Source of the DNA: Amoebophrya sp. A120
Lineage: Eukaryota; Protista; Dinoflagellata
Length of the DNA: 64,000 nt
Direction: 5' to 3'
Assembly: GCA_905178155.1 (NCBI GenBank)
Contig: CAJINV010000006.1
Location: 3,160,437 to 3,224,436 of the forward strand
Shown: positions 15,058 through 41,720 of the stretch, in pieces
How the letters are laid out: each line of letters opens with the position of its first letter
How positions within the stretch are numbered: position 1 is the first letter of the stretch
The notes under the pieces: generated by a model
Seen by the model: the letters and a program-made list of their open reading frames with translations, nothing else
What the model was told of the DNA's origin: nothing
Database searches by the model: none
Program-made: the position numbers and the translations under genes

Positions 15058-15165
15058 TAAGTAGTAGAGTTCCCGGCGAAGAAGTTCTCTCTCCCATTAG
15101 GAGAAAGAGATGAATAAATAGCACGACTGATTTTTTATTTGTAAGATCGTTTTCATCTGAAACTG

Positions 15166-17510: not shown

Positions 17511-19058
17511 TTGTAAGATCGTTTTCATCTGAAACTGAAAGTGAGAGTGCAGCTTTGCGAGCGCGTTGGCACTAGGTGCCATAGATATTGTTGTTTAAGA
17601 TTACGCTCTCTGTAGCATAGCTCCTCGTCCGCAATGTTGATCAATTCTACGAACTATAATTTTCCATGTTGTGAGAACATGATCAACATGATATTCTAGT
17701 GAACCACAAAAAAAAAAAGCTCTTACGTCGACGAGGGACCTTCAGCGCCTGCTCGTTCAAGTAGTTCTTCCTCTTTGATTCACCGCAACCAACCTTTATC
17801 GAGACGACTTCACTTTAGCTTTACAGACGTTGACTTTCTCAGCCAAGCAACTTATTGCTTCAGCCTCTGCAGGTGCAGTCTGTTCCTATGTGAAGAAGAC
17901 TGCGATAAATATACATTACAGCAACACCTTGACAGTTAGATTTGATGCAAAAGCAAAGAGCTGTATCGTCAGCTTCTGGATTGCCGAAAAATAAGAACCA
18001 ATTCTTTTGACCCTGAACTTGGCTGTTTTCTTGAACTTCCTTTTCAAAAATACCTCTTCCGCTTTACTTTTTATTTACATCTGAACTTCTGATACTTTCA
18101 ATCTAGTCCGATCATGGCGATAGATTGCTCTGTCTCGAAGTCCTAGCGCATGAGGACCACGACAAGCAACGAGGGGCGTCAACATCTTCAACAACTCATA
18201 TAGCGTCACTATGCCGAGACCTATCATATCTTATCCTCGTCGCTCCGCTTATGAAAAGGCCGACCTTTTTTTATACTTACTTTCTGTTTGTCTGAAACGG
18301 CACGGTATTAACCGCTACGGCCCGCGCTTTATGATGTTAAGGTTAGCCTTATCTTCACTTCTTATGCTCGAACCCGAACGGCATCGATACAGTTACACTT
18401 ACACAACTTTTTACACTCTCCAAATCCAATCAAAACAGATTGTGATTGCCGGTAGAAGTACTATGAGACAGATTGCGGCGGCGGCCGATCGCATCACCAG
18501 GGATGACGAAAAAATGAACTTCAAACTGATAAATTGAGTTTCGCTTTCGTTTCAAATTCAAGGCAAGCTATCTCTCCCGATCATATTCGCTTCGAGTATT
18601 CTTGTTGGTGTCGTGATCGTGTTCATCATCTTCTTCCCGAACAATAAAAGGTGGAATTATAATACCAGCAAGAAGAGGTGCTGACAAGCTTTTGTTTGTT
18701 TCCCTTTTCCCTTTGCGCGAAGCACAAAGTACCATGGGTCGTGGAGGTCCAGCACCAGGTGGTCCACTTTGGGACTACTTTCCAAAACTTTTTTTCCTCT
18801 GAGCGTGGAGCAGGACGAGTGCAATAAAGGAATGAGAGATGATGATGACGACAGCCGGTGGGCTCTACTTTATTTACTAGCTTACTAGATGTACTTAACT
18901 TTGTTCAAAACCGTATTTGTCTCAACGAACATCTGTTGCGGATCGGGATCGGCGAGGAGAAGTTGTGAAGACAATGTCAAGTTCTTCTACTTGAGCTTGA
19001 CTATATGTTTATATCAAGGTGCTTTATAAAATTATTGCGCTTCTGAAATAGCGACATT

Positions 19059-22000
19059 ATGGCACGGGGACCACTCGCACAACTTGCTGGCTCTTCTTGC
19101 TCTTGCTCGTCCTCCTCGTTTCATTCTGCAAAAGCCGCGTCGTCCGCAACAGCGCGGACCCACGTAGTTTCCGCTTTAATGGGTGCGACGTCGAGTTGTA
19201 GTTCTACATCTACTTCGAGCATGCTTTATTTTCAGCATTTTTACACGACAAGACCTGCGGCTGGTGCAGCTGTTGCTCCACGGGGTCTGGGCAAGATTGT
19301 CGTCCAACATGACACCACCACCATCGCGTTCAGGAGCCAGAACCACAGCAAGTTTTTTCTCTCCAGCGGCGTTCTCGGCAGTAGTAGAATGGTGTGCACG
19401 AGGACAAATGGCGGGTCGTCTTGCAGCTCAAGTAGACCTCGAAACTACATGGAGACGATGAGGGGCACTAGTAGAACAAGAGGGGGCGCCGCAACGGCAA
19501 CTACAATTGCTCGTGGTGGTCAACATCCTTCTACCACGACGACCATGGAGACCATGCACCAAGGACGCCACCAGGACCGGGAGTTGTGGTCGCGCACGAG
19601 AAGTGCCAGCTGTTTGATGCAGATCGCAGGAAGATCGCAGGCAGCATGGGCCGCCGCTTCTAGCGCCGCCGGGGGTCGTGCTTCTGGAGATCATCGATAT
19701 TTTTGTGGAGCAGGAGGTGGAGGTACAGGGACAAGGCCGTCTTTTTCAAATTCAATACATGGTCTTCTTGGCCGCGGGGGCAAACAAATCCAAAACCAAA
19801 AGCATTTCTTTTCCACGACAGCTATACAACCTTCCCCGACAGCGGAAGCTGCAGCTTTACACGAACCGCTATCAAGTGGAACTTCTGCGGCCACAAAAAT
19901 TATGACAGAGGATTTAAAGCAGTTCTACCATTTCCACGTGGATCAATACCAGGAACAGATGCGGCAAGATTTTCTTAAAAAGCAAAAGGAGAATACTACC
20001 CATGGGTAAAAACTTCCCCACCACAAACCCAGATGAAGATTTGTCATGGAGGTCCAGGTCGTGCACACTTGCATTTACAGGAACATCTGGTGATGATATG
20101 CGCACCTCTATGAGAGGCCGACTCCTGCTGGCTGTCGTCGTGCTCGTGTGGTGGCATTTGTAATGCTGCAGTTAGTTTCATTACGCATGGCACTTTTATT
20201 CCTCTTCTCATGTTGCCACAGTCCTTGCTAAGAACCTGCACCACACTACAGATTGATGACTTGGCACGCTGCAGAAGCAAAAACTTGTTGACCTGATGTG
20301 TAAGTAGCAAAAGATGTTGAAACAAGAACTGCAGCCATCGTGGCGCCGCGACGGGGGAAGACGTTTTACACAGGATACAAAACGCGAGCTACGAAATCAC
20401 CGAAGATAATCTCACAGGAGAAAAAGATTTACTCGCCGACCCGTCGTCCTACGAGTCCGCTATCGACCGACTGTCGAAAATCAACGACCCCGAGTTTTTC
20501 AAAGCCTATGAGAATGCACAACTCCCCCTCCCCGTCGTATGTGTAGTTGCATGAACAGCAACACGAGCGCTGGCAAAGTAAATGCAGTTTTTCTTGCATG
20601 ACAAATTCTATAAAGGATTCAAATGCTGTTTTGGATTCCGGAAAGTGTCATGCAAACAATGTTAACAGGCAAAGATGGGTGGATTTGTAATTTTGCATGA
20701 CAAATGACGTGGAGGGGAAGTTGTGCACTTTCATAAAGCTAGTCCGAAAACGAGAACGTTGCCGACGGACGGGAGACATTTGGCAAGCTACCCGGGTACG
20801 AGCGACGTTTATGAAAGCCTCAGGTTGGAAATCCTCAAAGTGGAAATAATTTGTAATGCAAAAAAACGACTCCAGTTGAAGCGGCATTTGTAGTCGGCGC
20901 ATGACAAATTTCCCGGGCACGTAAATCATGTCTGTCATGCAGGTTAAGGCAAGGGGGTGCCCTTCTGTCGTGCTAAACAGCACTCCAATTCTTCGCCTCT
21001 AGCAGGACAATAGTCGGCCTCCATTGCGCTCTCTGCAATACAGTCTTTTTTGCGTCGCATTTCATGCATTACAAATCATTTCCACTTTGAGCATTTCCAT
21101 CCTGAGGGTTTCATAACGTTTTGCGCAACATCGCGTTGGTACGGGAGTGTCAGGATAGAAGAAATTGACAAAGTTGAAACAATCTGCCATGCATAAAATG
21201 CGATGCAGAGGGTGGTTCTATTGCCGAGGATGCAAAGTAGGAGGGAGATTCTAGTACTGCTAAGAATCGTCAAGAGGAGTTGGGCATGGGGATGGGCTGC
21301 TGAGTAGCTTGACAGACGGGACGAGTTCCTTTGCCCTAGATAACACGACAGATTTGCTTCCGGCGCGGGAAAAGAAATTTGTCTTCATGCGCCGACAATG
21401 TGCAAACTGTGGGCTCAAATACTGGTATCGGTTTTATGCATTACAAATTGTTTCAACTTTGTCGATTTCGGTCCTGGCGCTTCCATAGTTGGGAGCGGTG
21501 CCGAAGTATTGCCACCAGTGGTTACCGAGGAAGGACGCCACGTTTCAAGTTTCGACTGATTACTACTCGGAGAAAGAAAGGGTAGAGTTTGTCGACGAGA
21601 CGCGAAATTATGCGACACAAATTCATTGCCGTACTAGTACCTAGACGACGTGGAAAGTGCATGAGAAATCGTAGCCCGCAACTAGGAACAGGAATCGAAA
21701 TTTGTAATGCCTGATAAAACGATATGAAAAGACCAAGAGACTTGTCATGCAAGAAAACGAAGTACTAGGCTACAAGTACAATTTCTGTGTGTTGTAGTGA
21801 GATGAATTTGCTGTGGATAGAAACCAACTTGTGGAGCTGAACCAATTGGAGCTGTACAACCGGGGAGGGAATGTGCATCCCGGTACTTACTACATATGTC
21901 GCTTGGAGGATCATTGTCATGGTCTGACATGCAACTCCTGCATGACACGTAGGCATGTATTACCAGAAATTTTGTATGACGGACTGGATTTTTCCTACCT

Positions 22001-23290
22001 CAATAACTAACTTCTTCGTTTAGCAGCACTGCGACTCTTATCAAGTGTAAAAATGTCTGGGTCTGGAAGAGTGCATGTTTGTCATGCTTGTCTGGCATGA
22101 CTCTCAAATCTGTCATGCACGTTACCCAAGAGCGCCATTTTTCTGTCATGTAGAAACGCAGTCTGTCATGCAGAATAAGCAACACCTAGAAGCAGCTCAG
22201 AAACTTGTCATGCTGAGCGAGCACCTGCGGCCTCCTCATGATACGCCACCCAGCATCACAAGTTTCCAGACTCAGGCACTTTTGCATTTGATAACTCTAA
22301 GAACACTAGTATCACGACAGGTGGCTGCCTCCTGCAAGTCACCCAGGACGGCGCCGTTGTCGAGCGCGATGCGGAAAAGGATCGAGAGCTCATTCCCCGA
22401 TCGGTTAGGATGGCGCTGGCGAAGAAACCGATCAACCCAGTTCACGAACGTCTTTCGCTCGACGAGGGAAGTTTTGGGATCTGCCCGAAAACGGGAAGGA
22501 AGTCCAGGGCGATGAAAGCGCATGACCACATGGTAGAGTAGGCGAACAAAGGCTGTGTTGTAGTTTAAGTTTTCGCAACATTTGTGATGAGTAAGCGTGC
22601 CAGCTATCATGTCGCAAACGCAGTTGTACCTCGCATGACAAATTACCTGTTGATCTGCTCGCCAAGGTAAAAGGCCAGTGGGGCGGACTTTACGGCTTTT
22701 CCTTTCTCTTCAGGTATGAAAGTGCACAACTTGAACCCCTCCCCCTGATTTGTCGTGCAAAATGCCGCGCCGACGTCCTGCCGGTAGATCATCTCCGATG
22801 TCATGCAAAATGCCCAATCCAATTGCTGCGTTCTTGTGGGACTGTTTGCATGACAAATTCCGGAAGCGGCCCAAAGCCAAACACTACTAGCACTCGGAGC
22901 GTGAACTCGTCATGTACAGGCTCCACGTGTGTTGATGGCGCTTGTATTGCTGTTCATGCCAGACATTTCAGGAGGAAGGGGAGTTGTGCACTCTCATATC
23001 AGCCTGACCTGGATTATGAAGTATTCCCTCGCCAGTCAAACCGATGTCACGGTAGTGACGGATCCGAAGCGGAGAATATCTGGGTTCTACAGCGTATCAA
23101 ACATAAAAGTGTTAGTGGTACTTCTACTTCTACACGCATGCTGTGCAATAAAAATTCTTGTCGCGGGGGCTTTATTACAACTTGCCTTACCGAAAAGCAA
23201 GAACACCATACGAGAAGACAAATTTCGCTTTAACGCTAACACTTTTTGGCATGATACCCCGCGCACCAGGAAGAGCTGGATAGGATGTAA
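19059..23290 (+). CDS. Gene 3: hypothetical protein, possibly mitochondrial membrane (S/R/A-rich N-terminus, C-terminal hydrophobic segment)
   Basis: Reconstructed end GQWGGLYGFSFLF-LTWIMKYSLASQTDVTVVTDPKRRISGFYSAHQEELDRM*; localisation is inference. Confidence 0.6.
19997..20377. mobile_element. Introner family F (degenerate)
   Basis: TACCCATGGGTAAAAACTTCCCC...GGGGAAGACGTTTTACACAGGATA; DR unclear. Confidence 0.72.
20507..20735. mobile_element. Introner family B
   Basis: TIRs; DR AAGCC/AAGCT. Confidence 0.88.
20810..21115. mobile_element. Introner family G-like
   Basis: TATGAAAGCCTCAGG...CCTGAGGGTTTCATA; DR ACGTT. Confidence 0.9.
21140..21487. mobile_element. Introner family G
   Basis: TIRs; DR GTTGG. 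Confidence 0.88.
22039..22293. mobile_element. Introner family C
   Basis: TIRs; DR ACTCT. Confidence 0.9.
22715..22998. mobile_element. Introner family B
   Basis: TIRs; DR TCAGG/TCAGC. Confidence 0.88.
23095..23256. mobile_element. Introner family E (degenerate)
   Basis: TATCAAACATAAAAGTGTTAG...CTAACACTTTTTGGCATGATA; DR CAGCG/CCCCG. Confidence 0.72.
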
Positions 23291-24130
23291 AGGTTAAGGT
23301 GACACAGACACGTGGCCAACGCGTGAAGATCTAACTTGTACCTGAGTTTTTGATGCCACTCTCTACCTGAGACACAGAAGCCATGCCCTTGGGGCTAGTT
23401 TTGTGAGACGAAGCAAAACTGCTGCTGCATATGCTACAGCTGCAACTTCGGCGGATATGTTATTGTATACCCGTACAACGATCGACATCGAATCATGATA
23501 AGCACTGCTCGAGCGGTCGTCTGTCGAGGTCAAGACGCAGTGACGAGCGCTGCCTGAAAGAGCACTGTGAAGATCCTCGTCTTGCATTATATCACGAGAC
23601 CGTCTCTTGACTTGTGGTGTTCTGTGATGTTGTAGTGTGGTTTCGTACCCACACCCAGCTGCCTATCGTGGTAAGTACAACTTCAAATGAAGTTGATGTG
23701 CCAGCATTTCGTTTCAATTCTTTCTCGCACCATCGCTGTCGCTGCAATGCTTACACGTAGAACTTCTACGTGAAAAATAAAACCGCATCGCTGAGTGAGA
23801 TCATCAGAGCGACACAAAATCGTGCTGGTGGTTAAGTCAAATCCTCGGCGAGGCATTGAAGATAACAGAGAGAATATTTCACCAGTGATTTCGACGTTCC
23901 TTCATTCTATTCGAGACGAAGCAAAGTCGCTGAGAGACGCTACGACGCACAACAGAACGCGCCATGTTTGTGATGTCCTAGTACCTCGTGAAACAAATAA
24001 AGGTCTTCACGTGCTACCTATTCATCTTCGTGTCTGGCTTCAAATTTTTTCGTATTCTTATTCCTATATGGACGACCATGACCACTTATACTTTCTTCAA
24101 AATTAGGAAAAAAACTAGCGCGACGTCGCG

Positions 24131-27100
24131 ATGAAAATGCCTTCCCAGCATGAAGGTAAGTATCGCACCTGCAGTACGATGATATTAAGGGTGTAAAAGC
24201 ATGAAGATGCTGTCGTGCGGGCTCTACTATTAGAAACAAGTCCAAGTGCTTGATTATGATTTTCTGAGGCCGCACTGCATCCGCCAAATTTAAAGATGTG
24301 GTATGAACTGCAAAAGTAACGTACTAGTATAAATTGCAATACAAATTGGCTCAGCATTACAAATTGAATTTGTAATGCGGATTTGCCTTAGGAACTACAT
24401 TTGTGATGCATAAATGCAATTAGTACGCGTACGATACTTTTGCGCAGGATATGTGGTGGACCGGGCGGATTCCCGGCATGTCCGAGGAGGACGACCGGAA
24501 GCTCTTTGAAGAAGAGAAAAAGGCTATCAAACAGAAAAAGTTCGTCACGATCACTCGTGCGCATTTTTGCAATGCAAAACTTTCTGTCATGCGTAAAAAT
24601 GCATCACAGCCAAACTTCGTAAGGGGTCTCCCTAGTGTCGCTAAAAAAATTTGTAATGCAAAGCGTGCGAGTAGTTAGTGACTGTGGCAAACTTTTTCTC
24701 TTCATAAATGCGGAGCAGTTGGGCCAGGACCTGATGCAGGAGATCATGGATTTGTTGGGAGAGATATCGAATGCAAAGAACATCATTTCTGGGTGGAGGT
24801 CTGGGAAATAATTGCGACGAGATTTATCGTCATGCTACTAGTCTGGCATGGCAGGAGGAGACTCTCCTTCTGGGCTGCTCTGTATTGCGTGGCCGCAGCG
24901 AGCTCCTCTTGCCTGTCATGCAAAAAGGCAATTTCAAATGCGGAGTACGCAACTCAGAACCACGGAAAAACTTTTCATGCTTGACTTGCATAGTTTATTA
25001 CTGTGGGCTCATTGATATTCCCGGACCCGCATCACAAGTTATTTCCCGACTCACACCCAGACTACATATTCGCAGTTGATAAGAAAACGGACCACCGCCG
25101 ATACCCCCGATCAGGTACTGTTGTTTCTTCACGTCTGTAGTTCATGCAAGACGTTGTCAAGTATGAAATTTGTGATGCTGATTAATATTTCCGATAGCAT
25201 AGACTTCTGCCTCGTTTGCGTCTGTGCTGCATAAAGAATCCTCGATCCCGATGCATAAAGCCACACGACGAGAAATTGAAACTCAAATTGTCTATACCTT
25301 CATCAGCTTCGAGCGCGTTCCTGGCGATATGCAGGGCTTGGTAAAGCCGCGAGAAATCCACGTGCTATCCTGTGCAAAAGTATCGATCGTACTCGTATAA
25401 ATGCATTACAAATTTTCTATCTCAGCATGAGAAATAAAATTTGTAATGCGGATTTACCTTGAGAAAAAAAATTGTAATGCATGACTGCAATTACTACGAG
25501 TGCGATGCTTTTGCAGTGGATACGTGCGCGGACCGAACAACGCGCCAGTCCCCTACCGCGGTCCGGGCAAAACACCCTACTACAGGATAAGCAACACGGA
25601 GGCGACGATCGTGAAGCAGATATGCATTGCAAATGTGTCTGGGTCTGGAAGGCTACAAGGTTTGTCATGCTTGTCTGGCATGACTGAAGAGCTTGTGATG
25701 CGTGTCCAAGAAGAGGCGCTTTTTCTTGTCATGCAAAACGCAGTTTGCCATGCGGAAAGCGCAACACTAAGCCACGCAAATATTTCTCATGCTTGGTTGT
25801 GCATTACAGACGAGAGCTCACTACTCACAACTCAGCATTCCAAGTTCTTTCCTGACCCAGACATGTGCGCATTCGATAACAGACTTTGGAGTACAATGGT
25901 TTCCGAGAATTGACAACCAACGGGATCGGGCTGGGCATTAGCCCGCACGATTGGGTGGTCCAGTGGTCGGGGCCGAACTACTATGCACAGTAAATTGATA
26001 TTCGTCGTCCCGTATAGTACACGTACAAATTATGCGGTGTCTGCATGACAAAACTGGGCTCCCCTCCGATGCTAGTTTAGCATGACAAGTGTTCCTAAAC
26101 TCCAAATTGGGGAAGTTTGTGATCCACATCTTGTACAACATGCACGGGACGAATAATTTTGTGTTGCATAATTGCCGTGACTACGTTTACCAAAACCTGC
26201 ACGAATATCAGTACGTGAACCACTTTTCGGGCTTATCCTGTGTAGAATTTACGTGGTCCCCACCTCCACAGAGTTTCCATGCAGAAGATCATTTGCAACG
26301 GCAGAAACATTTGTGATGCGCATGTCGCCCATAATAGGCATAATTTCCAATGTCGTCTTTTGGAATATGTAATGCTGGAAACAGCAGACGGATTATTTGT
26401 AGTAATGCGGCTGTCCTAGTCCTTTCCACTAAGCGTAAGCTGCACTGCAATACGGACTGCAACTTGCGCTTGCCATACGTGTTGACTCCCAAAATAACTT
26501 GGATGCTTGTGTTGCAAGAAAATCGGCATCGTGACAACTCCCGGGCGGGGACGACGTGTTTCCTCAGGATATGGCTCCACGGAAATGACCCGGAAAGACC
26601 GGATTTGGTGCCACTTTCAGGCGATGCAGCGACTTATGCACCGCAACTATGTCTGGGTCTGGAAACTTGTAATGCAAGTCAGTCAATAAGGAATGCGAAT
26701 GCACTGTAATGCGTCGCCAAGCATGACAAGTTTTTTCGTGCTTCTGTGCAGCGTATTCCGCATGAGAAACTGCGTCCTCTTGCTGGGCACAACCAACATC
26801 TGTCCAAAACAGCCTAGGGCCAAGACGACACCGCGAGGACGACCACAGGGGGTTCGTCTCAATGATGATGATGATGATGATGACAGGCGAGAGAGCCTGT
26901 TTGTGGCCATGCAATACAGAGTTAAGGGTCATGCCGGACCAGCATGACAAACCTCGGAATCTTCCAGTAGACCCAGACATTTTTGCATTCGATACGACTG
27001 TTCGGAAAGTTGCAGTTTGACTTCGTCCCCGAGACGTTTGTGATTCCGGACCAATTGGAAGCGTTTATCCAGGTTTACGAGAAAACGGACTACCTCTGGA

Positions 27101-30100
27101 TTGTCAAGCCCCATGCGAGTATTGATTTTTTTACTATAACGTTAACTTTGCATGACTGATTTTCGCTCTCCTAGTGCAACTGCATGACAGACTTTTGTTT
27201 TCGATCTACAGTACTAGGAAATCTATTTCTTTTCGGAAGAATATATAGCATTCGAAACTTGATGAACTTCTTCCTCTTCTACACTAAAGGTTCCCGCGGA
27301 CGCGGCATCTTCATTCTCCAGGAGCTCTCCGAGATCCCGCTCGACTGCCTGACGGTGATATTATCCTGTGCAAAAGTATCGTACTCGTAGTATTCGCAAT
27401 CATGCATCACAAATCTCCTTCCTAAGCTAAATCCGCATTACAAATTCCATTTTTCATGCTGAGGGAATTTGTCATGCGATTACTATATATTATATTCATG
27501 CGAAAAAAGAGGTAGACAGAGGGTAAACAAGAGGTGGCCGAGAGGTCAAAAAGAGGTCAAAAGAGGTAAAAAAGAGGTCGACAGAGGTGGAGAGGTGGCG
27601 CGGGGCCCCATTCGAGAGGGTCGGCGCGAGTATAGCCCGCCGAAGCGCTCACCCTAAAGCGCCGCCTAAGTGCCTGAGAGGGTGCAGGGAGGTCAAAAAG
27701 AGGGGGCGCGAGAGGTCGACAGAGGTGGAGAGAGGTGGCGCGAATAAGGGGCGACCTCTCGCGGACCCTCTTGGCCACCTCTCGGCCACCTCTGTCGACC
27801 TCTCCCCGCGAGTATAGCCGGATTATTAGCGGGGACCCCCAAAAGAGGTCAGAAAGAGGGTCTGCGGGAGGTCTGCGAGAGGGTGAAAGCACGCCCAAGC
27901 GGGCGCGAATCCGCATGGCACTCCTCATATTTGGCATTGCAGGCCATTCGCGATCTTGTTTTGTTCGGCGCCTTTCCGCGCCACCCTCTCGCGCACCCTC
28001 TCGCGCCACCCTCTCGCGCCACCCTCTCGCGCACCCTCTCGCGCCACCCTCTCGCGCCACCCTCTCGCGCCACCCTCTTGCGCCACCCTCTCGCGCAACC
28101 CTCTCGCGCCACCCTCCCGCGCCACCCTCTCGCGCTACCCTCTCGCGCCGGGCGGCTTCTGTTCGCCCCCGGTGTTCTTTTCAGCTGCTCCCTGCGCAGA
28201 GCGCCCACAGGCGCGGGAAGCGCGCAAGTGGTCCTGCGGGTTGGCGCGGTGCAAACTCCAGTATGTTTCGTTGTGCAGGACTCCAGTGCGTGTCGTTGTG
28301 CACAGACCCGTGGCGTTGTGGTCCGATCGGCAAACTGTCTCGCCCCGGCCCAACAGCCTTGCGCTCCGGCGGCAGCCGGAGCATGGCTGGTTTATACTAG
28401 TGCGATGCTTTTGCATTTCATAGATATGCCGCTACGTCGAAAATCCCTACTTGATCCAGGGTCTGAAGTATCAAATGCAAATATCGATCTGGGTCTGGAA
28501 GGTCGCAACTTGTCATGCTGTCTTTCGATTCTAAAAAAATCATCATTGCATGACCAGCAAGAGGAGTCCAGATTGTGCTACGCGGGGTACAGGTCGTTTG
28601 TCATGCGGGAGAGGCATCAGGAAGCCCTCAAAATAAAATCTGTGATGCTAGCTCTTGCATTCCAGGCCTCATGGGTCATGCGAAATATGCATGACAAACC
28701 TGGGAATCTTCCAGACCCAAACATTTTTACAATCCATATGCAGTTCGACCTGCGCCTCTACGTCCTGGTGACCGGGTTTGACCCCTTGCGAATTTACCTG
28801 TTTAAGGAGGGCTTGACCCGTTTCGCCTCCTCGGTTTTTAGCACCACGGAAGAGGATATGACAGTGCACAACTACCCCTTCCCCTCATTTAATGTGTTGC
28901 ATGAACGGCAATACAAGCGTCAGAAAGAGTGCCTATTTTGCATGACAAATTTGCACAGGAGTGTAGTACTGTTTGGGCTTCTGGAGTTTGTCATGCAAAC
29001 AGTGCCAAGGGGCAGAGCCCGGATTTGCTATTTTGCATGACAAATAAGGGGGAGGGGGAGTAGTTGTGCACTGTCATAGAGGACTTGGGAAACGTTTACA
29101 AGCATTTAACCAACTACAGGTACTAGGAATTTTACGTACAGACAATGTATAGCTTGTTCTACTTTATTGCTGTATGGCTACTTTATTTTTTTGCATCAAT
29201 CAAATACATCTACTCGTCATGCGACTTGGAAGTAATTCCGCATGACAAAATTCGTCTGAACATGATAAAAAAATACAGTATCAACAAGTACGCGTCAAAC
29301 TTTGTCGAGAACGAGGACGCGGCGCAGGACAACGTGGGGCACAAATGGAGTTTATCGGCTTTGAACAAGCATCTATCAAATGCAAATATGTCTGGGTCTG
29401 GAAGAGTGTAAACTTGTCATGCAGGTTTTCCATGACCCTTGAGGCCTGGAATGCGGGACCTAGCATGACAGAGTCTGTGAGGTCTCTATCATGCCTATCC
29501 TGCATGAGAAACTCCCTCCCAACTCGGTCGAAAGTGGACAGCCTTTGGCACTCATGCAACACAGATTTTTGCATGATTCCGATTCGGATTTAGCATGACA
29601 AGTTTACACTCTTCAAGACCCAGACGCTTTTGCACTGCATAACATCTTGCTTGCTGCAATGTGGACGTGAAACTCATGTGGTCTCGGATCATCGACGTGC
29701 TCATAAAGTGCATCCTTTCCGTCGAATATCCATTGCAAATAATGTCATCATCCATGCGCCGTCTGGATTTGTGATGCAACTGCAAGCTTTACATGGGGCT
29801 ATAGATTTGAATTTGTGTTGCCGTTGCATGAAGAGGATAATTAAGTACTACTAGCAAGTTTTTTTTTTTTGCCATGCGAAATACAACTTAGTAGAACTAG
29901 AACTACTCAGCTGGCAAAAATATGCATACCTGTCTGTATGTAAATAGATTTCTGATGTGGTACTGTCCCTACCTAGTCTGAACGTAGCCATCAAAGCGGC
30001 CTCGCGCCATGCGAGGCTCCTCAGCATGAAGACAAGTAAGACCCTCCTTGTTTCCAGACCACCCGGCTTATCGACATTCTTTGCAGTTGATATTGAAAGA

Positions 30101-33100
30101 CCGATTGTGAACAAGATGAAGTCGACGGTGAGCTGGCGGAGTAACTGCTTCGAGCTGTACGGCTTTGATTTGTTGCTCGATGAAGGGTTATATGCATTGC
30201 GAAAGCATCGTACTCGTATAAATGCATTATAAATTAGCCCAGCATTAAAAATTGAATTTGTATTGTATTGCATAAATGCAATTGCTACGAGTGCGATACT
30301 TTTGCAAAGGATAGGCTAAAACCGCACCTACTGGAGGTGAATTTGTCCCCGTCCATGCAGGCCGACACGCTATGCATTGCAAATATCGATCTGGGTCTGG
30401 AAGATGAATGCAAGTTTGTCATGCTTGTCTGGGATGACTCTTAAATCTGTCATGCACGTTTTTACCCAAGAAGAGCCCCATTGTTCTGTCATGCAGAAAC
30501 GCACCAGTTTGTAATGCAGAATAGGAGAAGCTCAGAAACTTGCCATGCTGAGCCCGCACTTGTGGCCTCCTCCTGATACGCCACGCAGCATCGCAAGTTT
30601 CCAGACCCAGACGCATTTGCAGGTCATACACGCCGTTGGATTACAAAGTCAAATCCGCGTTGGTGCAGGAAACGTTTAATCTGGTATACTGACTTGAATT
30701 TCTCATGCAGTTTATCGCTTGATGCTTTGGCTTTGTCATGCTTGTGGGAACTACAAGTCGAGGTGGACCACTTTTAAACCAATGAATCAGCTCGGGCCCA
30801 AGCTCGCGGACCAGAAGCAGCTCGGTGAAACCCGATGGAAATCCCGGGCGAAGCAGCTGAAGCGGCAAGGCCAGCGGATCCCCTACGGCCAACCTCTATG
30901 CATTGCAAAAGTGATATCGTACTAGTTCTAGTAGAAATTGCAATAGAAATTGGCGCAGCATGACAGATGGAATTTGTCGTGCTGATTCAGTTAGCGAAGG
31001 AGATTTGTCATGCTGCATGACCACTGCGATAATTACTAGGTGTGCGATATTACTTTTGCACATGGGATAACCCCTCGCCGCAAGCAACGCCGGTTCTTCG
31101 ACTGCCTACGCGTCTGCACAGTATCAAATGCAAAAATGTCTGGGTCTGGAAACTTGTGATGCAAGGAAGGCAATAGTGAGCTCACTATAATGCGCTACCA
31201 AGCATGACAAGTCTTTTCCCCCTTCTGAGTTGCGTATTCTGCATGAGAAGCTGCGTTTTTGCATGACAGGGAAGAGGAGCTCTTCGGGGCCATGCAATAC
31301 AGAGTTCAGAGTCATGCCAGACTAGCACGACAAACACAAATATCGCAATCTCCCAGACCCAGACATCTTTGCATTTGATACACAGGCACTGAAGCCAACA
31401 GTTTTGAACACGCCAGCAGCGAGAGCGCGGGAAGCTATCCTGTGCAAAAGTATCGTACTCGTATTGCAGTCATGCATTACAAATCTTTCTCTTAAGGTAA
31501 ATCCGCAATACAAATTTTATTTCTCATGTTGAGGAAATTTGTAAATGCATTTTTAGGTTTACGAATACGATACTTTTGCAATTCATAGAAGCGGAGCGGC
31601 AGCAGAAATTCCACAACTTACAGAAGAAGAACTTGCCCCTCGCCACGTTAGGGGAAAAACCGCTGCGGCTGCTGCTCTATCAAATGCAAAAGTGTCTGGG
31701 TGTGGAACAGTGGAACTTGTGATGCAGATCTTGCATAATTCCTGGAAACTCTGTGTTGCACGAGCAGCAAAAGAGGAGCTTGCTTTGTCATGCAGAAACG
31801 CCATTTGTGATTCGTGGTAGGCATCAGCAGGCGTCTCCAAAACTTGTCATGCCTGGCTGCCATTGCAAGCGCTTCAATCATGCTCAATTCAGCATCACAC
31901 ATTTCCAGACCCAGATATATTTGCAGTACATATGCTCGAATGTGTCCAGGAATTCAGTATGGCGCACGACTTCATCCGCGTTTTTCCGACGCAGGCCAGC
32001 GTCAAGCGGTACGGACACATGATAGGAATCTATGAACTGCAAAAGCATCGTACTCGTATTGCGATCATGCATTACAAATTTTTTTCTGAAAGCAAATCTG
32101 CATTACAAATTTTATTTGCCATGCTGAGGAAATTGCATTTATACGAATACGATACTTTTGCACAGGATAGAATCGGGTCGACCGCAAAGTCCATGTCTGC
32201 GAGTCAACTCCTCTGTCTAGCCTTGTTTAACGAGCCCCGATTGGCGCGAGCGCGAAATGGGTCGCTGCGGTATCAAACAAAATCGTGCTAACGTTAACGG
32301 TTTTCACAGCTGGCAGTTATGCATTACAAATTTTGCCTTCCATGCATGCTACGCAACACAAATTTGGGCAACCTTTCTGATGCGTTACGGCATCACAAAT
32401 TCCGTTAACGTTAACGCTTTTTCTTGTGATACGCGGAGGTCGTTAACCAGAGGATCAAATGCGCAAACGAATAAAACGCCCTCTACTTCTCCCAACAAAC
32501 AAACCCCCGCGGTGCAGATCGACAACGAGGAGGACGGCATTTCTGCGGAAACCGCATCTGCGATTAATGCCCTGAACAAGCAGGGGGCCAGTGAGTTCGA
32601 CGACGTAGCGAGCACGGCATATGGGAGTGTCAGGATCGAAATCGACAAAGTTGAAATGACTTGCATGCAATGCATAAAATCGATGCAACCAGTTGAAAGG
32701 CCAATTTCCAAGCGGCGCATGACGAATTTCGGCACCGTCTAAATCCAGTTTGTCATGCTGGTTAGGGGCCCCAGAAGGCGTCCTTTGTCATGCTACTTTA
32801 GCAGCTGCATCGCAGGCCCCAAACAGGCTGACAGTCGGCCTCACTTGCCATCCCTGCAAGAGAGGCAGTTCATGCCTTGCAATTTATGCATGAGAAATTA
32901 TCTCAACGTTGACGATTTCCAATCCTGACGCCTCCATACGGCAAGCGGAATCTCCCAAACCACCGCGACGAGTAGCAACTTCACCGGTGTAAGTAGTGTG
33001 ACCGGAATAGGAACAAATGCGAGTCATTTAGCCGGGAATCATGCCAGTGGCGGGATATCGAATTTTGTTTCCGGGAACAGCTCATCGAGTAGTAGTTCGA

Positions 33101-36100
33101 GTTCGTCCTCAAACGTCGCTGCGGGTGGGGGGAATATCAATCACAACCTGGGTGGAAGAGGATCCTCGGCGAAAAACAGAGTCGAGTCGCCAGATTTAGC
33201 CGCCTTATCCCGCGCACGAAATTCGAACCGGGACAAGTCGAGGAACGGCGAGAAAAAGGGAAAATCAGGCAGAAGAAAATCGATAAATCAGTACTATCAG
33301 AATACGAGCGGGTTAGGGGTTTACGCCGATGGGGGATTGGGAGAGGGAGCAGAGGACGCCGGGGAACAGGGGGGAAGGTATAGATAGTTTGAACCAGGAG
33401 GCTTTTGAAGCAAGATGCATGCAAGGAGATTCACTACTTCTACTACCCATAGACAACATGAGCATGATCTTTACGGGCAGAGTAGCCTTACAGACACTGT
33501 ATATCGTACTCTTACAAAAAGAAAAACATGTAGGAACGCCGACACTTCGTCTCAACACACAATGAATCTATCAGGTGGCCCCTCTTCCAGGACGAGCCGC
33601 CGCCAATCCAGCGAAGCCGGACTCTATCAAATGCAAAACGGTCTGGGTCTGGAAGGATGCGAACTTGTGATGCATACTTGGATGACACAAAAATCTTCTG
33701 TCATGCTTAGACAGCAAAGGGAGCTCCTTTTCCTGTCGCCGAAAGTAGGTGTTTGCTGTGCGGGTTAAGCATTGGGAAACCGTCTCAAAAGCTGTGATGC
33801 TAGGCCTTGCATGGCACACCTTGCTTCTGTGTCAAGCAGACACAGCATCACAAACCTCAGCTGGATTCTTCCAGACCCATACACTTGTGCAATGCATAGA
33901 GTCAGACGCAGGAAAATTTGAACGGGCGTTCGAATCGGCAAAGTGTTTCTCCCACCAGGAACAGCGGCGGGGGCAACGGCGGGAATAGTAGCAGCTCCAC
34001 GAATATGGATTGCAAAAATGTCTGGGTCTGGAAGATTGCAACTTGTGGTGCTGTTTTTGGATTCCAAATAAAAGATCTGTATTGCATGACCAGCAACAGG
34101 ACTCGGACTCCAGTTTGTGTTACGCGGAGAAGGCATTTCTCATGCGGAATAGGCATTAGGAAGCCCTCTAAAAATCTGTGTTGCTAGATCATGCAGTAGA
34201 GGCATCAATCATCATACAAAATATGCATGACAAGTCTGCACTTTTCCAGACCCAGAAATTTTTGCATTTGATAACGAAGAAGCTCGCCAAGTCGAAAGCC
34301 CACACGGTGAATCAGTACCCCGCAACAGGGAACAACAATAATTCCACGTCAAACGACCAGCTAACGAGGAGCAACAGTTTAAACAACTCAAACTCGTCCT
34401 CTCAAGAGCAGCAATACCAGCACCAGCAGCCTCTGGTCAGCCCCGCGAATCTGATACAGAAGAAGGAGCAGATGAAGAACTTCATGCGGTATGAGGATCA
34501 TAATGAGCAAGAGCAGGCCATGCGGGATTTGCAGCAGAGCCAGAACGGCGGGAACGGAACAGCAGGGGGAAATAACAGCAGTAGTACTTCTTCTAACGGA
34601 GAGCAGATTCTAAACACCCACAACTTCTATTGGAGCACATCGGTCGTTATGAATTGCAAAAGTTGTATCGTACTCGTATAAATGCATTACAAATTTCCTC
34701 AGCATGAGAAATGAAATCTGCAATGCGGATTTACCTATACGAAAAAGATTTGTGATGCATAATTGCGATTGCTGCGAGTGCGATACTTTTGCACAGGATA
34801 GTCGTGAGTACTGAGGGGTCGAAACGAGGGCTGGATGCGTTGGAGAAGAGAATAAATGGGATGATATCATGTGTAAAATCGTCCCCACGACCCCATAGGC
34901 AAGCTAATTGGGAACTCGCAACACAGATCCAGAGATTTTGGGAGCCGCGCATGACAATTTGCAGTCCGTAGTGTAGTGTATGTTACCAGCAAGGAAAACT
35001 GCATCACAAGAAATCCATCTGCTTATCCTGTTTACAGCGTTACAAATTCGAAAACGCGAATGGAAACGCTTCTCATGGAGATGCGCATTACCAATCGTCC
35101 TCCAATCGCAAATCTGCATGACAAAAACTATGAACTGGGGACGTTTTTACACAGGATAGATGAACGGCAGTAGTTCCGTCGCGAACGCGAGCAACTTCGC
35201 GGCACATATCCTCTGCAAAAGTATCGTACTCGTACTCATCGCATTTATGCATTACAAATTTTTTTGCCAAGTTAAATCCGCATTACAAATTCGATTTACT
35301 ATCATGCTGAGGAAATTTGTCATGCGATTCATACAAGTGCGATACTTTTGCAGTTCATAGCACAGATGCTGCAGCAACAATTGCCCCAGTTCACAGTGAA
35401 TCCAGAAAAACCCCCACCGCCAATGCACCAGGAGGCGTATCATAACTCCTCGCCAAGATCGTCGCATCATCAGCGGAGTGTGAACAGGGACGATAGAGAG
35501 AGGGGCAGAAGTAATGCCGTTATCCACAGTAAATTTCCCGTACACGACGTGCAAATGCGGTCTCCGCATGACAAAACTTTGCTATGATCCTAGTTTAGCA
35601 TGACAAGTTTTGCGCTCCAAATTAGTGAAATTTGTGTATGCATCTTGTACATGTACGGGAAATTTGTATTGCATAGCCGTGAAGCAGAGTTACCAAACAG
35701 GAGCCGGGGGCACTGCGTCGCCGAGCGGTCGGAGCCCACCGGGAAAGAGTAGACAGCCGGTGATTGGCGCGGGCAGCGGGTATATATAAATGCATTACAA
35801 ATTTCCTCAGCATGAGAAAGAACATTTGTGATGCGGATTTACCTTAAGAAAATGATTTGTAATGCATGACTGCAATCAATAATTATCATGGGCGCAGCTG
35901 ATAAAAAATTTCGTCCGGATTTCGTCCGTTTTTTTGATATTTTTTTTGAAAATTTTTTTTTTGCCCCTTTGGAGGCGCCCGGCTTTGTGCCCTCTCCAGC
36001 ATCTATTAGCGCAGTGGGGCGTGCTCTGGGCCTGAATCTTCCCGGCCCTCGCTCCCTAACCCACGGCCACACCGCGGGCGTCGCCAGCATGTTTCGCGCG

Positions 36101-39100
36101 GCTCTTCACTCGATCACAACCGCTGGATCACAGGTCGCCGGACCTTAGGCGTCCAAGGGCTTGCCGCAGCCTGCTTTCGCATCCTCTCGAAGAGGCCCAA
36201 AAGCCTGCCATTGCCTAGGGCTTTTCATGTGGCTGCCCATGCAGTGGCCTCTCATTGCTTTGAGAAGGCGGCGCCGCATTTTTTGGGCAGGAAGCGACCA
36301 GCGATCAGCCCCCGGCCTTTGTCTGTGGGTGGGCTGGTGGGTTCGCGCCTTCACAAATCGGGGGATTTTCTTCTAGCAAAGACGGACAACAAAGACGAAG
36401 GCCAAAAATAGCTTTTTTTTTGGCTTCCGAAATATCTTTTTTTCGTCTCCCAAAATATCTCCGGACTTTCCCGAAATATCTCCGCGAGCGACAAGGAAAG
36501 CAAAAAAAACTATCTCAAAAGTTATTTTAGCGCCGATGCTATGGAGATACTTTGGGAGATATTTCTGGAAATATTCCGAGATACTTCCGCGGAGCTTTCC
36601 GAGACACTTTCTGGCCAAAAAAGCGTCGCCCAAAATATCTTTTTTCGGCTTCCAAAAATATCTTTTTTTGGCTTCCCAAAATATCTTTTTTCGGCTCTTC
36701 AAAATAGCTTCTTCCTTCTAGACCTTTTGGTCTGCGGATAAGGAGGGGGAAAAAGAGGGACAATCAAGATGCCCGAGGCGGCTACTTAAGGCTCCGTCAG
36801 GGTGCGCGCAGCAGGTGCGTGCCCAATGTTGCGTTGCCCTCAGGGTACCAGCGGCGCCCACCTAGGCGGGACGCACGCTCGCAGTGCCGGCGCGGGCAAC
36901 TTAAAAACCGCTAGGGAGAATGGGGGCCGGGGCGTGACACCTAGAGCTCGCGCAACAAAGTGCAGGGAGGCAGCGCGCAGCGTGTCATGCCGCCTGTGCC
37001 TTAGGACACCGCGCAAGCGCGCGGGCTCTATGCGCTAGCACAAGCGATGCGCCTCGCGCGCAATACCGCCGCCGCGCCAAGCAAAGGCTCCGCGGCTTTG
37101 GCAGGGCGGGCGTGAGGCGCTTTGTTGGGTTCAATTTTTTTTTTGAAAAAAAAAATATCAAAAAAACGGGAGATAATTTGGCTTCGGGTGCCATCCAGAC
37201 GGGCCCATGATAACAATAACTAAACAGGGCCCTCACCACCTCCTACGCTCCCAACGGAACCCTACTCCACCCGAACAACTCCGGCGGACCATATCAAATG
37301 CAAAAATGTCTGCTTCTGGAAGATTGCGAGGTTTGTCATGCACATTTTGCATGACTCCTGACGTCTGTGATGCATGCCCTAGCATCACAGATTTTGTGAG
37401 GGCTTCCTGATGTCTATACCGCATGACAAATGCTCTTTCCGTGTAGCAAAATTTGGACTCTCTTTGCTGCTTATGCAATACAGATTTTTTTAGAATCCAA
37501 AATCAGCATGACAAGTTGCATTCTTCCAGACCCAGACACTTTTGCATGTGATAGGTCAATGCTGCTGCCCACAGGTGGAGCGCAGAATCAGCAGGATCCA
37601 GCTAACGCCAGTCCGAACAAGTTGAGAAATCAATCGGTCGGGAATTGGCAGTCGTACTACCGTATGCATTGCAAAAGTATCGTACGTAGTATGAATTGCA
37701 TCACAAATTCAAATTCTGTCAAGAAGAAAAATGCAACTTGTCATGCTTGTTTACCTAAAAGGGGTAGTTTGTCATGCACGATAGCAATGACCACGAGTGC
37801 GATATCACTTTTGCAATGCATATACCGGAATTACGGCCAGAACCTCGCGGACAACGATCCGAACCGACCGGGCAGTCCGCAGAACCGCGTGCTGCAGCAA
37901 ATCAACCGAACGCGGTACGTATGCATTGCAAAAGCATCGCACTCGTTGTATCGCAATCCTGCACTACAGATCTTTTTCTTAACGTAAATCAGCATTGCAA
38001 ATTTTATTTCTCATGCTGAGGAAATTTGTAATGCATTTATATAGCTACGATAGCGAAGATACTTTTGCAATTCATAGTACAACGGTCAAGGGGGTGCGCC
38101 TGGGGTAGAGATGATGCTCGAAGGTCCGGTCATGATGGAGAACGGCTCGCCACTGAAGAGCAGGAGCATGAACGGTGCAAGTGGGGGGCAACTACATGGC
38201 TCGTCGCAGGACTTGCAACAGGTGCGTATGTTGAAAAGTTCAAACGTAATAAGAATCGTTTTTCAGTTCCTTCATTCCTATTGTCCACGCTCTGGAGGTG
38301 CATTTGGATTTGTCATTCTTTCAAAATCAAAACCAAGAAGTACGAAAAAACAAAATAAACGCCAGACCGCCGCCAACCAAGCTGCTTCTAGTACAAGTTC
38401 CACGCTGCACAACGCGAAAGTGTCCGCCTTGGCCAGAAAAGCTTACCCAACCATATGACCTGCTCAAGCATTACAATCTCAAACGTTACAACAGAATCTT
38501 CTTGGACTTGTCTTGCACAATGAGCATGGCAGACTCGCAGAGCGTTCCACTTTCTGCAATACAAATTTCGCCAGATTGTAGTGAGGTTTGGGATGACTCC
38601 GGAACTTGTCATGCGCAATCGTATGAGAGTTGGCTAGATCATGCATTTCTTGCATCACAGATTTGCTCTTCCATATTCTATTGCACCGGTTAAGAAGATT
38701 GTAACATCTGAGCGGGGTATAAATCAACAACCTCGTGGAGCAGCATTCGGAGCTGATCGGCCCCCCGGTGGATGTCAATTTATCGAAAGAAAAAACTGTT
38801 TCACTGTAAGCTAGATAGTGATGCACAGAATTCTGGAATCAACAGAAGGATTTGTGTTTGTCTTGCTACACCTACCTGATGCACCATGACAGTGTCCTCT
38901 CGGTAGTTGTGTTTTCACCCGCTGCCCTCAGACATGGCAAGTTTTTCTATGTCTTCATGCGTAACTACGAACTTGTGATGCGAATTTTGCAAAATTATCC
39001 TTACATCAGTGGAGCATTGTTTTCCCGCGATACAGTTGGTCCCCCAAGCAAAGACCGAGAGCCTTGTCGATGCCGCGGCCAAGGACAGCTGAGTTATCGA

Positions 39101-39340
39101 CATGATCGCAAAAGTAGAAGTGTCTCGCTTGTTGCCTTGCAGCACCACTGCATCACAAATCTCATTAATTTCATCTCGATTTGTCATGCTGAGCAGATTT
39201 TTTGATGTCATGCAAAAGGAGCAAGAACTACTAGCGTATCAATCGACAAAAATACTTTTGCAGTGCATATCACCGGAAGAGCAACAATGTGTCCAGCACG
39301 ACGAGTAGCGTGATTATGGGAGTGGATATCGAGTTGTGAT
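24131..39340 (+). CDS. Tubulin-tyrosine ligase-like protein (tubulin polyglutamylase, TTLL4/5-like) with long low-complexity tail; >30 introns; start and end approximate
   Basis: Spliced motifs: [133 protein letters not shown]. Confidence 0.93.
24302..24451. mobile_element. Introner family A
   Basis: TIRs; DR TGTGG. Confidence 0.9.
24525..24706. mobile_element. Introner family E
   Basis: TIRs; DR AAGGC/AATGC. Confidence 0.8.
24765..25081. mobile_element. Introner family C (diverged)
   Basis: TIRs; DR AGAGA/AGAAA. Confidence 0.82.
25115..25306 (+). other. Canonical GT-AG intron with residual TGTGATGC motif
   Basis: AG|GT...CAG|; joins IPPIS-FERVPG in frame. Confidence 0.75.
25366..25522. 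mobile_element. Introner family A
   Basis: TIRs; DR CGTGC. Confidence 0.92.
25621..25878. mobile_element. Introner family C
   Basis: TIRs; DR GCAGA/ACAGA. Confidence 0.9.
25982..26170. mobile_element. Introner family H
   Basis: TATGCACAGTAAATT...AATTTTGTGTTGCATA; DR ACTAC/ATTGC. Confidence 0.8.
26234..26571. mobile_element. Introner family F
   Basis: TIRs; DR GGGCT/TGGCT; splits [13 protein letters not shown]. Confidence 0.88.
26635..26994. mobile_element. Introner family C with internal expansion ending in (GAT)n
   Basis: TIRs; DR CGACT. Confidence 0.9.
27119..27289 (+). other. Canonical GT-AG intron with introner-like remnants
   Basis: Joins [12 protein letters not shown]; contains TAACGTTAAC and GCATGACA. 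Confidence 0.85.
27362..28422. mobile_element. Introner family A with ~0.9-kb nested insert
   Basis: TIRs at both ends; DR GATAT; joins LTVI-CRYVENP. Confidence 0.9.
27485..28392. mobile_element. Nested GC-rich element: AGAGGT repeats, 13-bp (CCACCCTCTCGCG)n minisatellite at ~27978-28148, terminal hairpin
   Basis: Layout and right end resemble 15166-17510. Confidence 0.75.
28469..28738. mobile_element. Introner family C
   Basis: TIRs; DR TGAAG/TGCAG; splits K-FDLR. Confidence 0.92.
28857..29078. mobile_element. Introner family B
   Basis: TATGACAGTGCACAACTAC...GTAGTTGTGCACTGTCATA; DR GAGGA. Confidence 0.94.
29120..29278 (+). other. Canonical GT-AG intron with residual GTCATGC/GCATGACA pair
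   Basis: Joins HLTNY-SINK. Confidence 0.85.
29374..29641. mobile_element. Introner family C
   Basis: TIRs; DR GCATC/ACATC. Confidence 0.9.
30191..30313. mobile_element. Introner family A (short, 123 bp)
   Basis: TIRs; DR GGTTA/GGCTA; splits [12 protein letters not shown]. Confidence 0.9.
30371..30628. mobile_element. Introner family C
   Basis: TIRs; DR CACGC. Confidence 0.92.
30897..31069. mobile_element. Introner family A
   Basis: TIRs; DR ACCTC/ACCCC. Confidence 0.86.
31122..31380. mobile_element. Introner family C
   Basis: TIRs; DR CACAG. Confidence 0.92.
31436..31587. mobile_element. Introner family A
   Basis: TIRs; DR GAAGC. Confidence 0.92.
31678..31932. mobile_element. Introner family C
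   Basis: TIRs; DR TGCTC. Confidence 0.9.
32031..32169. mobile_element. Introner family A
   Basis: TIRs; DR GAATC. Confidence 0.92.
32271..32431. mobile_element. Introner family E (opposite orientation to 11580)
   Basis: TIR including TAACGTTAACGG; DR TGCGG/CGCGG. Confidence 0.86.
32620..32938. mobile_element. Introner family G (opposite orientation to 7309)
   Basis: TIRs; DR CGGCA. Confidence 0.92.
33625..33898. mobile_element. Introner family C
   Basis: TIRs; DR GACTC/GAGTC. Confidence 0.88.
34004..34273. mobile_element. Introner family C
   Basis: TIRs; DR ACGAA. Confidence 0.92.
34648..34800. mobile_element. Introner family A
   Basis: TIRs; DR GTCGT. Confidence 0.92.
34865..35158. mobile_element. 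Introner family F
   Basis: TIRs; DR GATGA. Confidence 0.9.
35207..35359. mobile_element. Introner family A
   Basis: TIRs; DR GCACA. Confidence 0.92.
35521..35675. mobile_element. Introner family H
   Basis: TATCCACAGTAAATTTCCCGTAC...GTACGGGAAATTTGTATTGCATA; DR GCCGT. Confidence 0.9.
35780..37227 (+). other. Probable GT-AG intron derived from a family-A introner that lost its TIRs and carries a nested transposon
   Basis: GT at 35780; family-A core ~35786-35875; CTAAACAG ending 37227. Confidence 0.6.
35883..37213. mobile_element. 1.33-kb non-autonomous TIR DNA transposon with 6-bp target-site duplication
   Basis: TTATCATGGGC...GCCCATGATAA; subterminal CCGTTTTTTTGATATTTT also inverted; CAATAA on both sides. 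Confidence 0.88.
37292..37553. mobile_element. Introner family C
   Basis: TIRs; DR GACCA/GGTCA. Confidence 0.86.
37663..37822. mobile_element. Introner family A
   Basis: TIRs; DR TACCG. Confidence 0.92.
37920..38076. mobile_element. Introner family A
   Basis: TIRs; DR GTACG/GTACA. Confidence 0.9.
38454..38721. mobile_element. Introner family I
   Basis: TATGACCTGCTCAAGCATTACAATCT...AGATTGTAACATCTGAGCGGGGTATA; DR AACCA/AATCA. Confidence 0.78.
38781..39032. mobile_element. Introner family D
   Basis: TIRs; DR CAATT/CAGTT. Confidence 0.82.
39095..39269. mobile_element. Introner family A (degenerate 5' end)
   Basis: 3' TIR TTTTGCAGTGCATA and internal motifs; DR not evident. Confidence 0.6.
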
Positions 39341-41720
39341 TTGTCATGCGGTTCGTTTACTTGGGAGCCGGCGTGGGAGTTGTGGATGCTGTTCTTGCTG
39401 TCACGCACAAAAGTGATCCGACAAGTAGAAGCATCGGCGTACTTCAACAGAATTTTATGATGTAGTATTGCAGTATCAGTATCAAATTCAAATCGGAGTA
39501 CAAAGTTATGAATTTAGCAGCAGGGTTTAAAAAAGTAAGTAGAAGTAGCAATCACTTACTACGACCTTTTACATCAATGACGTCAAGATTTTTACACAAA
39601 AATGTCAGAATGTCCTTATTGTCAACTTTATGCATAATATTCGGCTATCCGCCTGACAAACGTGAAGACGCGCTTCTTGTCGCGGTTTGTGCATGGCAGA
39701 AAAAACTTTGAAATTTTGGAAAATGTTCTTGATAACGATAACTCCTATCGCATTTTAGTGAATTAGTGAACTTGTTGTGTTGCTGGTGTACTAGTTGCAG
39801 AACGAGGAGTTGTACTAAGGCGCAACAAGCTGCAACTACGGTTATTTTCAAATTTCCGGAAAGAGGTTGAACTTGAATCCAAAATGTAACATCACCACGC
39901 AGACGAGCCAGAGCAGACTCAGTCTGACTGGTACAACTGTCACTGCCTTGGAACTGTTTCAACTAAACAAATTCAAATTTATCAATTTTTATTGAGCTAC
40001 TGTTTGCTATTGTTTCCAAAGTTGTAGACACAACTACAACGACGACCTTGAGTTACTATTTCCCCTGTAGAATCATCAAGAAGAAAAACAAAACCTTAAC
40101 CTCCAGAATAATGAAAAGTAATACTCGTTTGCAAATAAACTATCAGACCACTCCTCTACTGTGGCAGCACCATCTCCTATTTGTTTCTATTTCACATTTG
40201 CTCAATGGTTCAAAAATACTTAATATTGCAGATTCCTATATGCTTTATCCTATGCAAAGAGTTTAGTTGGTGGCTCTTAATTTAGAAGTGCCACCTCTAA
40301 CAACTCGTTTCAGTGAGCTTCTATACTTTTTATTTGCGAATTATTGTCATCCTCAACAGTAGAGCGGTCGCGCCGTTGGGGGAAGGCGTGACTGGCGATC
40401 TAATATCTCAGTGCTAGTATATGATCACCAGTATCTTCAGATCGAATGATGAAACTTCCTTGCGCTCGACCAGGCGGCCACCAGCAGGAGAATTAATGAC
40501 TCTATCTAAAATTTATCAAAAAGATGAAAATCCACCTTGCATTTTTCCTGAACTAGTTACGAGCTCGTCCCTCCTTCGTAGTAGGCCTAGATTCAAGAAT
40601 GTCAACTTCCATGACAGCACGACGGCGCACCGACTACGGGAGAAGAACCCTGAACAAAAAGTAGAAAGAACATCCCAAAGAAGTAGAAGATATTGGTGGT
40701 CGCAATCAGAAGTCACACGACAGCACGGAGTTATGCATTTGAACAAAAAAGATGCTGGTAGAGTTGATGTATCGAACGAGCTAATTTTTGAATTCCAAAT
40801 AATTTCTGAAGACTCTATCAAAAAGCAGGAGAGCGAGAAAGATGTAAAATGTAAAATGAGATAAGCACTGAAAAAAAGCTACTGGTCGTGTTGTACTTTT
40901 CTGTACAGACGCAGGTAGTTGTGCAGCAACAGCTTCATTGCTAATTGCAATTCTGACGGCACTACAGAACCGTGTTCTACTCCGTAGTGCGTATCTGACG
41001 AGATAATTGAACAAGCATCCGGCTGCTCGTGATTATAGCCGCGGCGGGGGTGCTTTTTTATTTTTACCCTCATAACCCCGTCGTCCCATATTTATCGTAG
41101 CTGTCCTCTCTGCCCGCCATTTTTCCCTCGCAGGACCCTCCAACGTTAGTACCACGAAATGTAGTTGTACAAGAACTTAGAATTTCAAGTCGGCAAAAAT
41201 TATTGCAATGCCATCAACATCGTTCTTGTCGAAAGCGAAAAGCCAGCTGTAGAGGAAGTTCATGAAGTTTTTGTCCGTACTTGTTATAGAAATTGTCGCG
41301 TTTGAAGACCCGTCCCCGTGGTAGTGGTTCCAAGAAGAAGATGATGATAAAGCAACACCTCTACGCTTGAAGTGACGTCACTAGAGACGAGTTTTTGAAA
41401 ACAAAATAACGGACGGAGTAAAAATGCGACACCACCGTGGAGGACATGTTCACAAAGATGAACAAGACAAGATCAAGAGCTGCCACAAGAACGACCGCAC
41501 GACCGCCGTTGTAGCTACTAGGACTCGTCGTCGCTGTCCAGGCTAGTACGTAGTGCCACGACGTCGCTTCACTGTTTAGTCCGTTCCTTCAATCAGCCAC
41601 GACAAGGACCACCTGAGTGCGGTTTTCTTGTACCATCTAGCGTGTTGAAAGCGTGACTTAGTACAACCAACCGCAGTATCATACGATACGGGCAGACACG
41701 ACTACAGCTACACCAAGACG

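Follow-up and report, generated by a model that had tools for sequence, protein, structure and literature searches.

A window of 64,000 nucleotides (nt) from Amoebophrya sp. A120 (contig CAJINV010000006.1, positions 3,160,437 to 3,224,436 of the forward strand) was analyzed for the origin of three GT-AG introns, at 25115-25306, 27119-27289 and 29120-29278 of the window. They interrupt a TTLL5-like tubulin polyglutamylase gene of 1301 amino acids (24296..39338, + strand; PF03133, identity to CAD7954002.1), the 41 introns of which comprise seven GT-AG introns and 34 introners, i.e. hairpin introns bounded by terminal inverted repeats (TIRs) with TAT..ATA ends. Introners of A120 have already been published (Farhat et al. 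2021, PMC7789003). The three introns stand an even chance of descending from old introner insertions, as end points of a rare and probably abrupt conversion with no graded series; the descent is plausible and unproven. That conversion takes place as a rare jump is likely, and is supported by one other intron of the gene, 35780-37227. The window thus yields one clean converted intron, and a gradual, selected series was invisible in 90 elements.

The 41-intron model reproduced 1301 of 1301 residues of CAD7954002.1. Splice evidence was taken from spliced contigs of four runs (two samples, one study), the RNA status of which is a guess in the record, yet introns are skipped in them. Thirteen joints fell in 24700-29730 and 14 usable ones beyond (15 of 86 joints listed); joint 31162>31241, running from repeat to repeat, was dropped. 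Raw RNA runs placed only 32 and 2 reads on the window and were left out. The introner set of 90 was made from 92 scan candidates plus additions, less 14 false or nested ones and less 10794 and 54497 (decayed termini). For the 34 in the TTLL5-like gene the support comes from contigs or the annotated protein, for the others from structure. Family profiles were built from the window itself (8 families, 65 copies).

The sequence-only reading from which this work started had described the three introns as introner-sized GT-AG introns that begin with G-TA and lack TIRs. Contigs of all four runs skip them (192, 171 and 159 nt, all + strand) with GT..AG ends and the frame kept, and all three start with GTA. 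The first lies in codon 52 (phase 2), has ATCAG at both exon end and intron end, and carries at 25171 the motif TGT[ACG]ATGC discussed below. The second, in codon 214 (phase 1), has motif copies at 27149 and 27182, 33 nt apart, and TAACGTTAAC at 27137. The third, in codon 301 (phase 2), has TACAG at both junctions, a motif at 29240 and, at 29216, a copy matching at 7 of 8 positions. Judging from their ends, they are probably removed by the U2 spliceosome. Their TIRs are indeed absent: 4, 4 and 6 of 20 terminal positions match, against a median of 15.5 in the 90 introners, and folding is not significant (z 0.31, 0.12 and −1.57, against −3.60 for the introner at 28468-28742). The size comparison is loose, the 159-192 nt overlapping the short family only while the median introner intron measures 254 nt (83 elements).

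The best case of conversion in the window, and by its sequence apparently the one clear case, was not among the three. Intron 35780..37227 (+ strand) is spliced GT-AG in the contigs (joint 35778>37227) and contains a family A introner core at 35785-35878 from which both TIR arms are gone. The core scored 71 bits against the family A profile (model positions 29-121 of 150) and matches the intact copy at 45194 with 91% identity across 92 nt; none of 200 and none of 300 shuffles did as well. An unrelated TIR element of 1331 bp (35883..37213, strand unassigned) is nested in the intron with CAATAA repeats at its flanks. With this element set aside, about 6 and 14 nt remain outside the core. The loss of both arms around so young a core would point to deletion and not to slow decay. 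That introners can become TIR-less GT-AG introns is therefore borne out by an intron which the sequence-only reading had not included.

How such a change could yield GT and AG follows from the way introners are cut. They carry a 5-nt target site duplication (TSD), and 21 of 21 contig-supported non-canonical joints fit the register N-TA..TA-NNNN, the intron including one base ahead of the first TA and four bases past the last. Joints 24763 and 37914 set limits to the register, and joint 39093, being unable to slide, fixes it. The non-canonical introner behind this unambiguous joint (39094..39273, + strand, contigs) is cut with precision even though its TSD copies now agree at only 2 of 5 bases, so splicing does not depend on the direct repeat. 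With one cut register, TSD base 5 becomes donor position +1, and TSD bases 3-4 form the acceptor. These bases lie in the intronic TSD copies and are free to change, and the cut ignores their identity. The idea that a G in front of the element's TA produces a GT start is thus structurally right. At 6411-6562 the TSD GGTCG lets an aligner slide a hairpin intron into a GT-AG placement; similar cases may have inflated published counts of canonical introns with inverted and direct repeats.

The link between the three introns and the introners is TGT[ACG]ATGC, of which GCATGACA and TGTGATGC, earlier taken for remnants of introners, are two forms. The window holds 262 sites against 7.9 expected, 246 of them in 89 elements and 16 elsewhere. 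The motif occurs in 86 of 89 elements and in all families, about equally on both strands (132 and 111). Its columns are conserved at 0.82-0.97 in families A-D, compared with 0.69-0.80 for other interior columns. Same-strand pairs stand 30-33 nt apart in families A, B, D, F and H, often at 31-33 nt, and this conservation and spacing suggest a DNA-binding site. Each of the three introns has one strict site; shuffles gave one in 82, 11 and 64 of 2000 (25115, 27119 and 29120, respectively), so its presence in all three is not due to chance. The remnants are therefore a real motif, though one common to all families and not the mark of any particular family. In 27119 and 29120 the motifs come in pairs whose similar spacers make them look inherited, and five of the seven GT-AG introns of the gene have the motif. 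Apparently gene-free DNA, 12.7 kb in all (3353-4910, 15065-19900, 23262-24295, 39337-41720, 52356-53119, 56680-57775 and 60942-61990), has only two motif sites and no TAT..ATA element; exonic density would predict about 49. Elements are accordingly inserted or retained specifically in exons, and it is unlikely that the motif reached an old intron through a later insertion. The lack of nested TAT elements, which follows in part from the non-overlap rule, was not used as evidence.

If the three introns do descend from introners, the arms would have been lost by deletion, in which the nested element may have had a part at 35780-37227. Without arms, an intron would survive only where the TSD supplies GT and AG or is one or two changes away from them. 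The interior would then drift while TGT[ACG]ATGC sites persisted under constraint. In this scheme splice-site gain may come before or after arm loss.

Several results weigh against this descent. Where a TA is expected, 6 and 5 nt short of the 3' end, the three introns have CA, CT and AT. A 5-nt direct repeat in register matches at 4/5, 1/5 and 4/5 positions (25115, 27119 and 29120), overlapping the splice consensus, and the would-be TSD of 27119 is the one with a single match. Repeats at exon end and intron end (ATCAG, TACAG, AATC(T/A)G) occur in three of four introns in the conserved half of the gene; they speak for descent, but they too coincide partly with splice consensus. Scoring the GT-AG introns of the gene against the family profiles, as had been proposed, singled out 35780-37227 and gave the three introns 4-8 bits, so that no family is assignable with window-built profiles. 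Shuffles keeping the motif reached the profile score in 12, 41 and 1 of 200 cases, and the highest score against a single copy in 23-52, 5-28 and 0-4 of 300 (25115, 27119 and 29120). By these scores family similarity beyond the motif appears absent at 25115, borderline at 27119 and weak at 29120. The alignments concerned, which count in favor of descent, are two-motif patches: 45 nt of 27119, 78% identical to the copy at 63394, and 40 nt of 29120, 78% identical to the family B copy at 22039. A family E remnant had also been claimed at 27119; TAACGTTAAC does match family E near the expected offset, but the claim is not confirmed, 2 of 60 shuffles having equalled the match with six ends tested. 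Nearly every shuffle has some 10-mer in common with an element. A constrained motif moreover gives no measure of age and might appear in any intron, and there is one clear converted intron only.

Conservation of the host protein adds to these objections. According to Farhat et al. (PMC7789003, in the portion covered here), 19.4% of A120 introns are at positions shared with A25; these are 98.6% canonical and commoner in conserved proteins. The TTLL5-like domain, with 320 of 345 residues identical to the A25 ortholog, belongs to that class. Orthologs in A25 (GSA25T00017129001) and AT5 (g18911) were identified as proteins. A cluster of TTLL fragments (P0051) breaks at HLTNY-R and continues into unrelated residues, as seen at the protein level; a distant eukaryote with a phase-2 intron where 29120 lies would give such a break. 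An archaeal metagenome-assembled genome is the listed source of one cluster member, probably through contamination.

The three may then be old spliceosomal introns, with the motif acquired from a nested fragment now decayed or by convergent selection for an intron mark at the DNA level, and with 35780-37227 as an exception. This is a real possibility that falls somewhat short of an even chance. It accords with the lack of TIR, register and family in the three, with the HLTNY-R cluster, and with arithmetic on the figures of Farhat et al. (PMC7789003, as far as covered), by which about half of the A120 canonical introns would be at A25-shared positions. Canonical introns also concentrate in this conserved gene (seven, against four unverified candidates elsewhere), and a family C element already sits inside the acceptor of the probable canonical intron 22533-23002. 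GTAY donors in six of the seven GT-AG introns fit the loss of snRNP27, which was not detected in Amoebophrya (Farhat et al., PMC7789003) and the loss of which goes with +4U in yeasts (Parker et al., PMC10581693), both as given in the parts of these papers covered. Because that loss offers another explanation for them, GTA(Y) donors do not discriminate. Old introns are harder to reconcile with the avoidance of non-exonic DNA by the elements, with the inherited look of the spaced motif pairs in 27119 and 29120, and with the two GT-AG introns of seven that do without the motif, which is hence not required. Among 65 short proteins reaching HLTNY, homology was lost there only in the P0051 cluster and one other. 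In a comparison of intron positions, nearly all of 80 metagenome loci were uninterrupted, and the splits in L045, L050 and L056 lay away from the three sites. Seven prokaryote-assembly loci proved to be distant TTLL paralogs, with an HLTNYS break in none of five examined.

The sequence-only reading had proposed a different path to conversion: TSD copies selected stepwise to GT and AG, then gradual TIR decay, with 28469 as an intermediate. The cut register makes such change possible, G is in the intronic copy at three of five informative donor-base differences, and the GT-AG intron 33378-33574 has TA at both register positions. Among the 90 TIR-bearing elements, graded intermediates were not seen and GT and AG were not gathered. 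The donor base G was found 22 times in the intronic TSD copy and 21 times in the exonic copy, the acceptor AG 11 and 13 times, and G and AG together once (22715). Where the two copies differ, the canonical base lay in the intronic copy in seven cases (toward GT-AG) and in the exonic copy in nine (away; p 0.80), 28469 being among the nine; toward and away denote which copy has the canonical base, direction being fixed only at 28469 by a conserved lysine. The proposed correlation between TIR identity and canonical ends was not found (rho −0.13, p 0.21, 90 elements), and the TIR match was 15.2 of 20 with GT donors and 14.9 with other donors. With 90 elements, a weak bias toward GT/AG could escape notice.

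The supposed intermediate tells the same way. The family B introner at 28468..28742 (+ strand) is removed as 275 nt, GT..CA, in the common register. Its element (28469-28738, TSD TGAAG/TGCAG) has TIRs, a TSD, family membership and non-canonical removal, with the folding z given above. The contigs retain the A of the upstream copy at 28469 (joint 28466>28742), and K251 is invariant in 7 of 7 aligned orthologs. The upstream TGAAG copy is thus kept in the transcript, as the conserved K had been said to need. Because K251 is invariant, the A is ancestral, and the intronic copy has changed from GT..AA to GT..CA. GT and AG are one base out of register here, so 28469 is no intermediate, and the copy has moved away from AG. 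No donor but TA would allow use of the CAG; a GT..AG excision would be 276 nt long and put the reading frame out. With 35780-37227 also armless while its core is 91% identical, unlike gradual decay, the stepwise path is improbable. A separate older family whose members began with GT, drew AG from the TSD and were canonical at birth, like those of Aureococcus or Polarella, is more improbable still: such classes have been described (Roy et al., 10.1101/2020.10.14.339549, as far as covered) and in 25115 and 29120 exon end and intron end share a 5-nt repeat that finishes in AG, but 27119 has no such repeat and the three introns are not among each other's best matches in the window.

The remaining GT-AG introns of the gene, all on the + strand, are 30684..30790 (codon 425, phase 0; one motif, no TIR), needed for a contig span of 1371 nt and for the annotated protein, and two contig-supported ones lacking motif and family match, namely 33378..33574, with the two register TAs noted above, and 38222..38365, with a GTGC donor. 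Candidate GT-AG introns outside the gene, at 5966, 14041, 21883 and 22533, were recognized by frame and look. The family C element in the last of these (22715-22998) lies in the TCAG acceptor, and its upstream copy leaves AG|GT, a possible recursive splice site. Large unrelated inserts are nested in the introners at 7980-10385, 27362-28422 and 42666-43613, of which the 1066-nt one is still cut in register; a long, near-perfect palindrome occupies 8949-9647. The first coding exon of the TTLL5-like gene (24296-24300) has only 5 nt and is followed by an introner, the median exon of the gene being 80 nt.

The introners of the window agree with those reported by Farhat et al. (PMC7789003) from the same organism, with inverted repeats starting in TAT and direct repeats of 3-5 nt; the common non-canonical ends given there (GT-AC, CT-AG, AT-AG and TT-AG) fit an N-T start, and direct plus inverted repeats were reported in 15% of A120 canonical introns. 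Unlike the present result, the splice position relative to the hairpin was called variable, and the single register, the internal motif and armless GT-AG derivatives are undescribed in the sections covered. A literature search gave the same picture for all three, though the figures and supplements of Farhat et al. may hold them, and the parts covered of PMC12130899, PMC11282704, PMC12621601 and PMC13326754 had nothing on conversion. Fungal introner-like elements likewise lose sequence and length until indistinguishable from regular introns (Collemare et al. 2013, PMC3609843, in part), but these are spliceosomal from the start, whereas A120 starts from a hairpin intron that is not GT-AG. For euglenid intermediate introns a change from hairpin-defined to conventional has been proposed (Milanowski et al. 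2016, PMC4770533, in part), with the warning that a GT/GC end alone is no proof of kinship; the euglenid example keeps its hairpin and gains GC-AG, while 35780-37227 is armless with a recognizable family core. Symbiodinium and Polarella elements also recruit splice sites from TSDs, and Symbiodinium donor conversions from GA to GC have been shown with orthologs (Roy et al., 10.1101/2020.10.14.339549, in part); those elements have splice sites at insertion, and A120 introners need none.

We tentatively propose, at less than even confidence, that hairpin introners with no need of splice sites may be an ongoing source of A120 GT-AG introns. They would be cut in one register, carry a constrained array of motifs spaced 31-33 bp and lose both arms, and most strain-specific canonical introns would still bear the motif, by which their origin could be traced. 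If this is true, the passage of introns from non-canonical to canonical could be counted directly. The maturation of mobile non-canonical introns into spliceosomal ones bears on intron origins, and the tens of thousands of elements in A120, with a fixed register and a common motif, make the question countable genome-wide.

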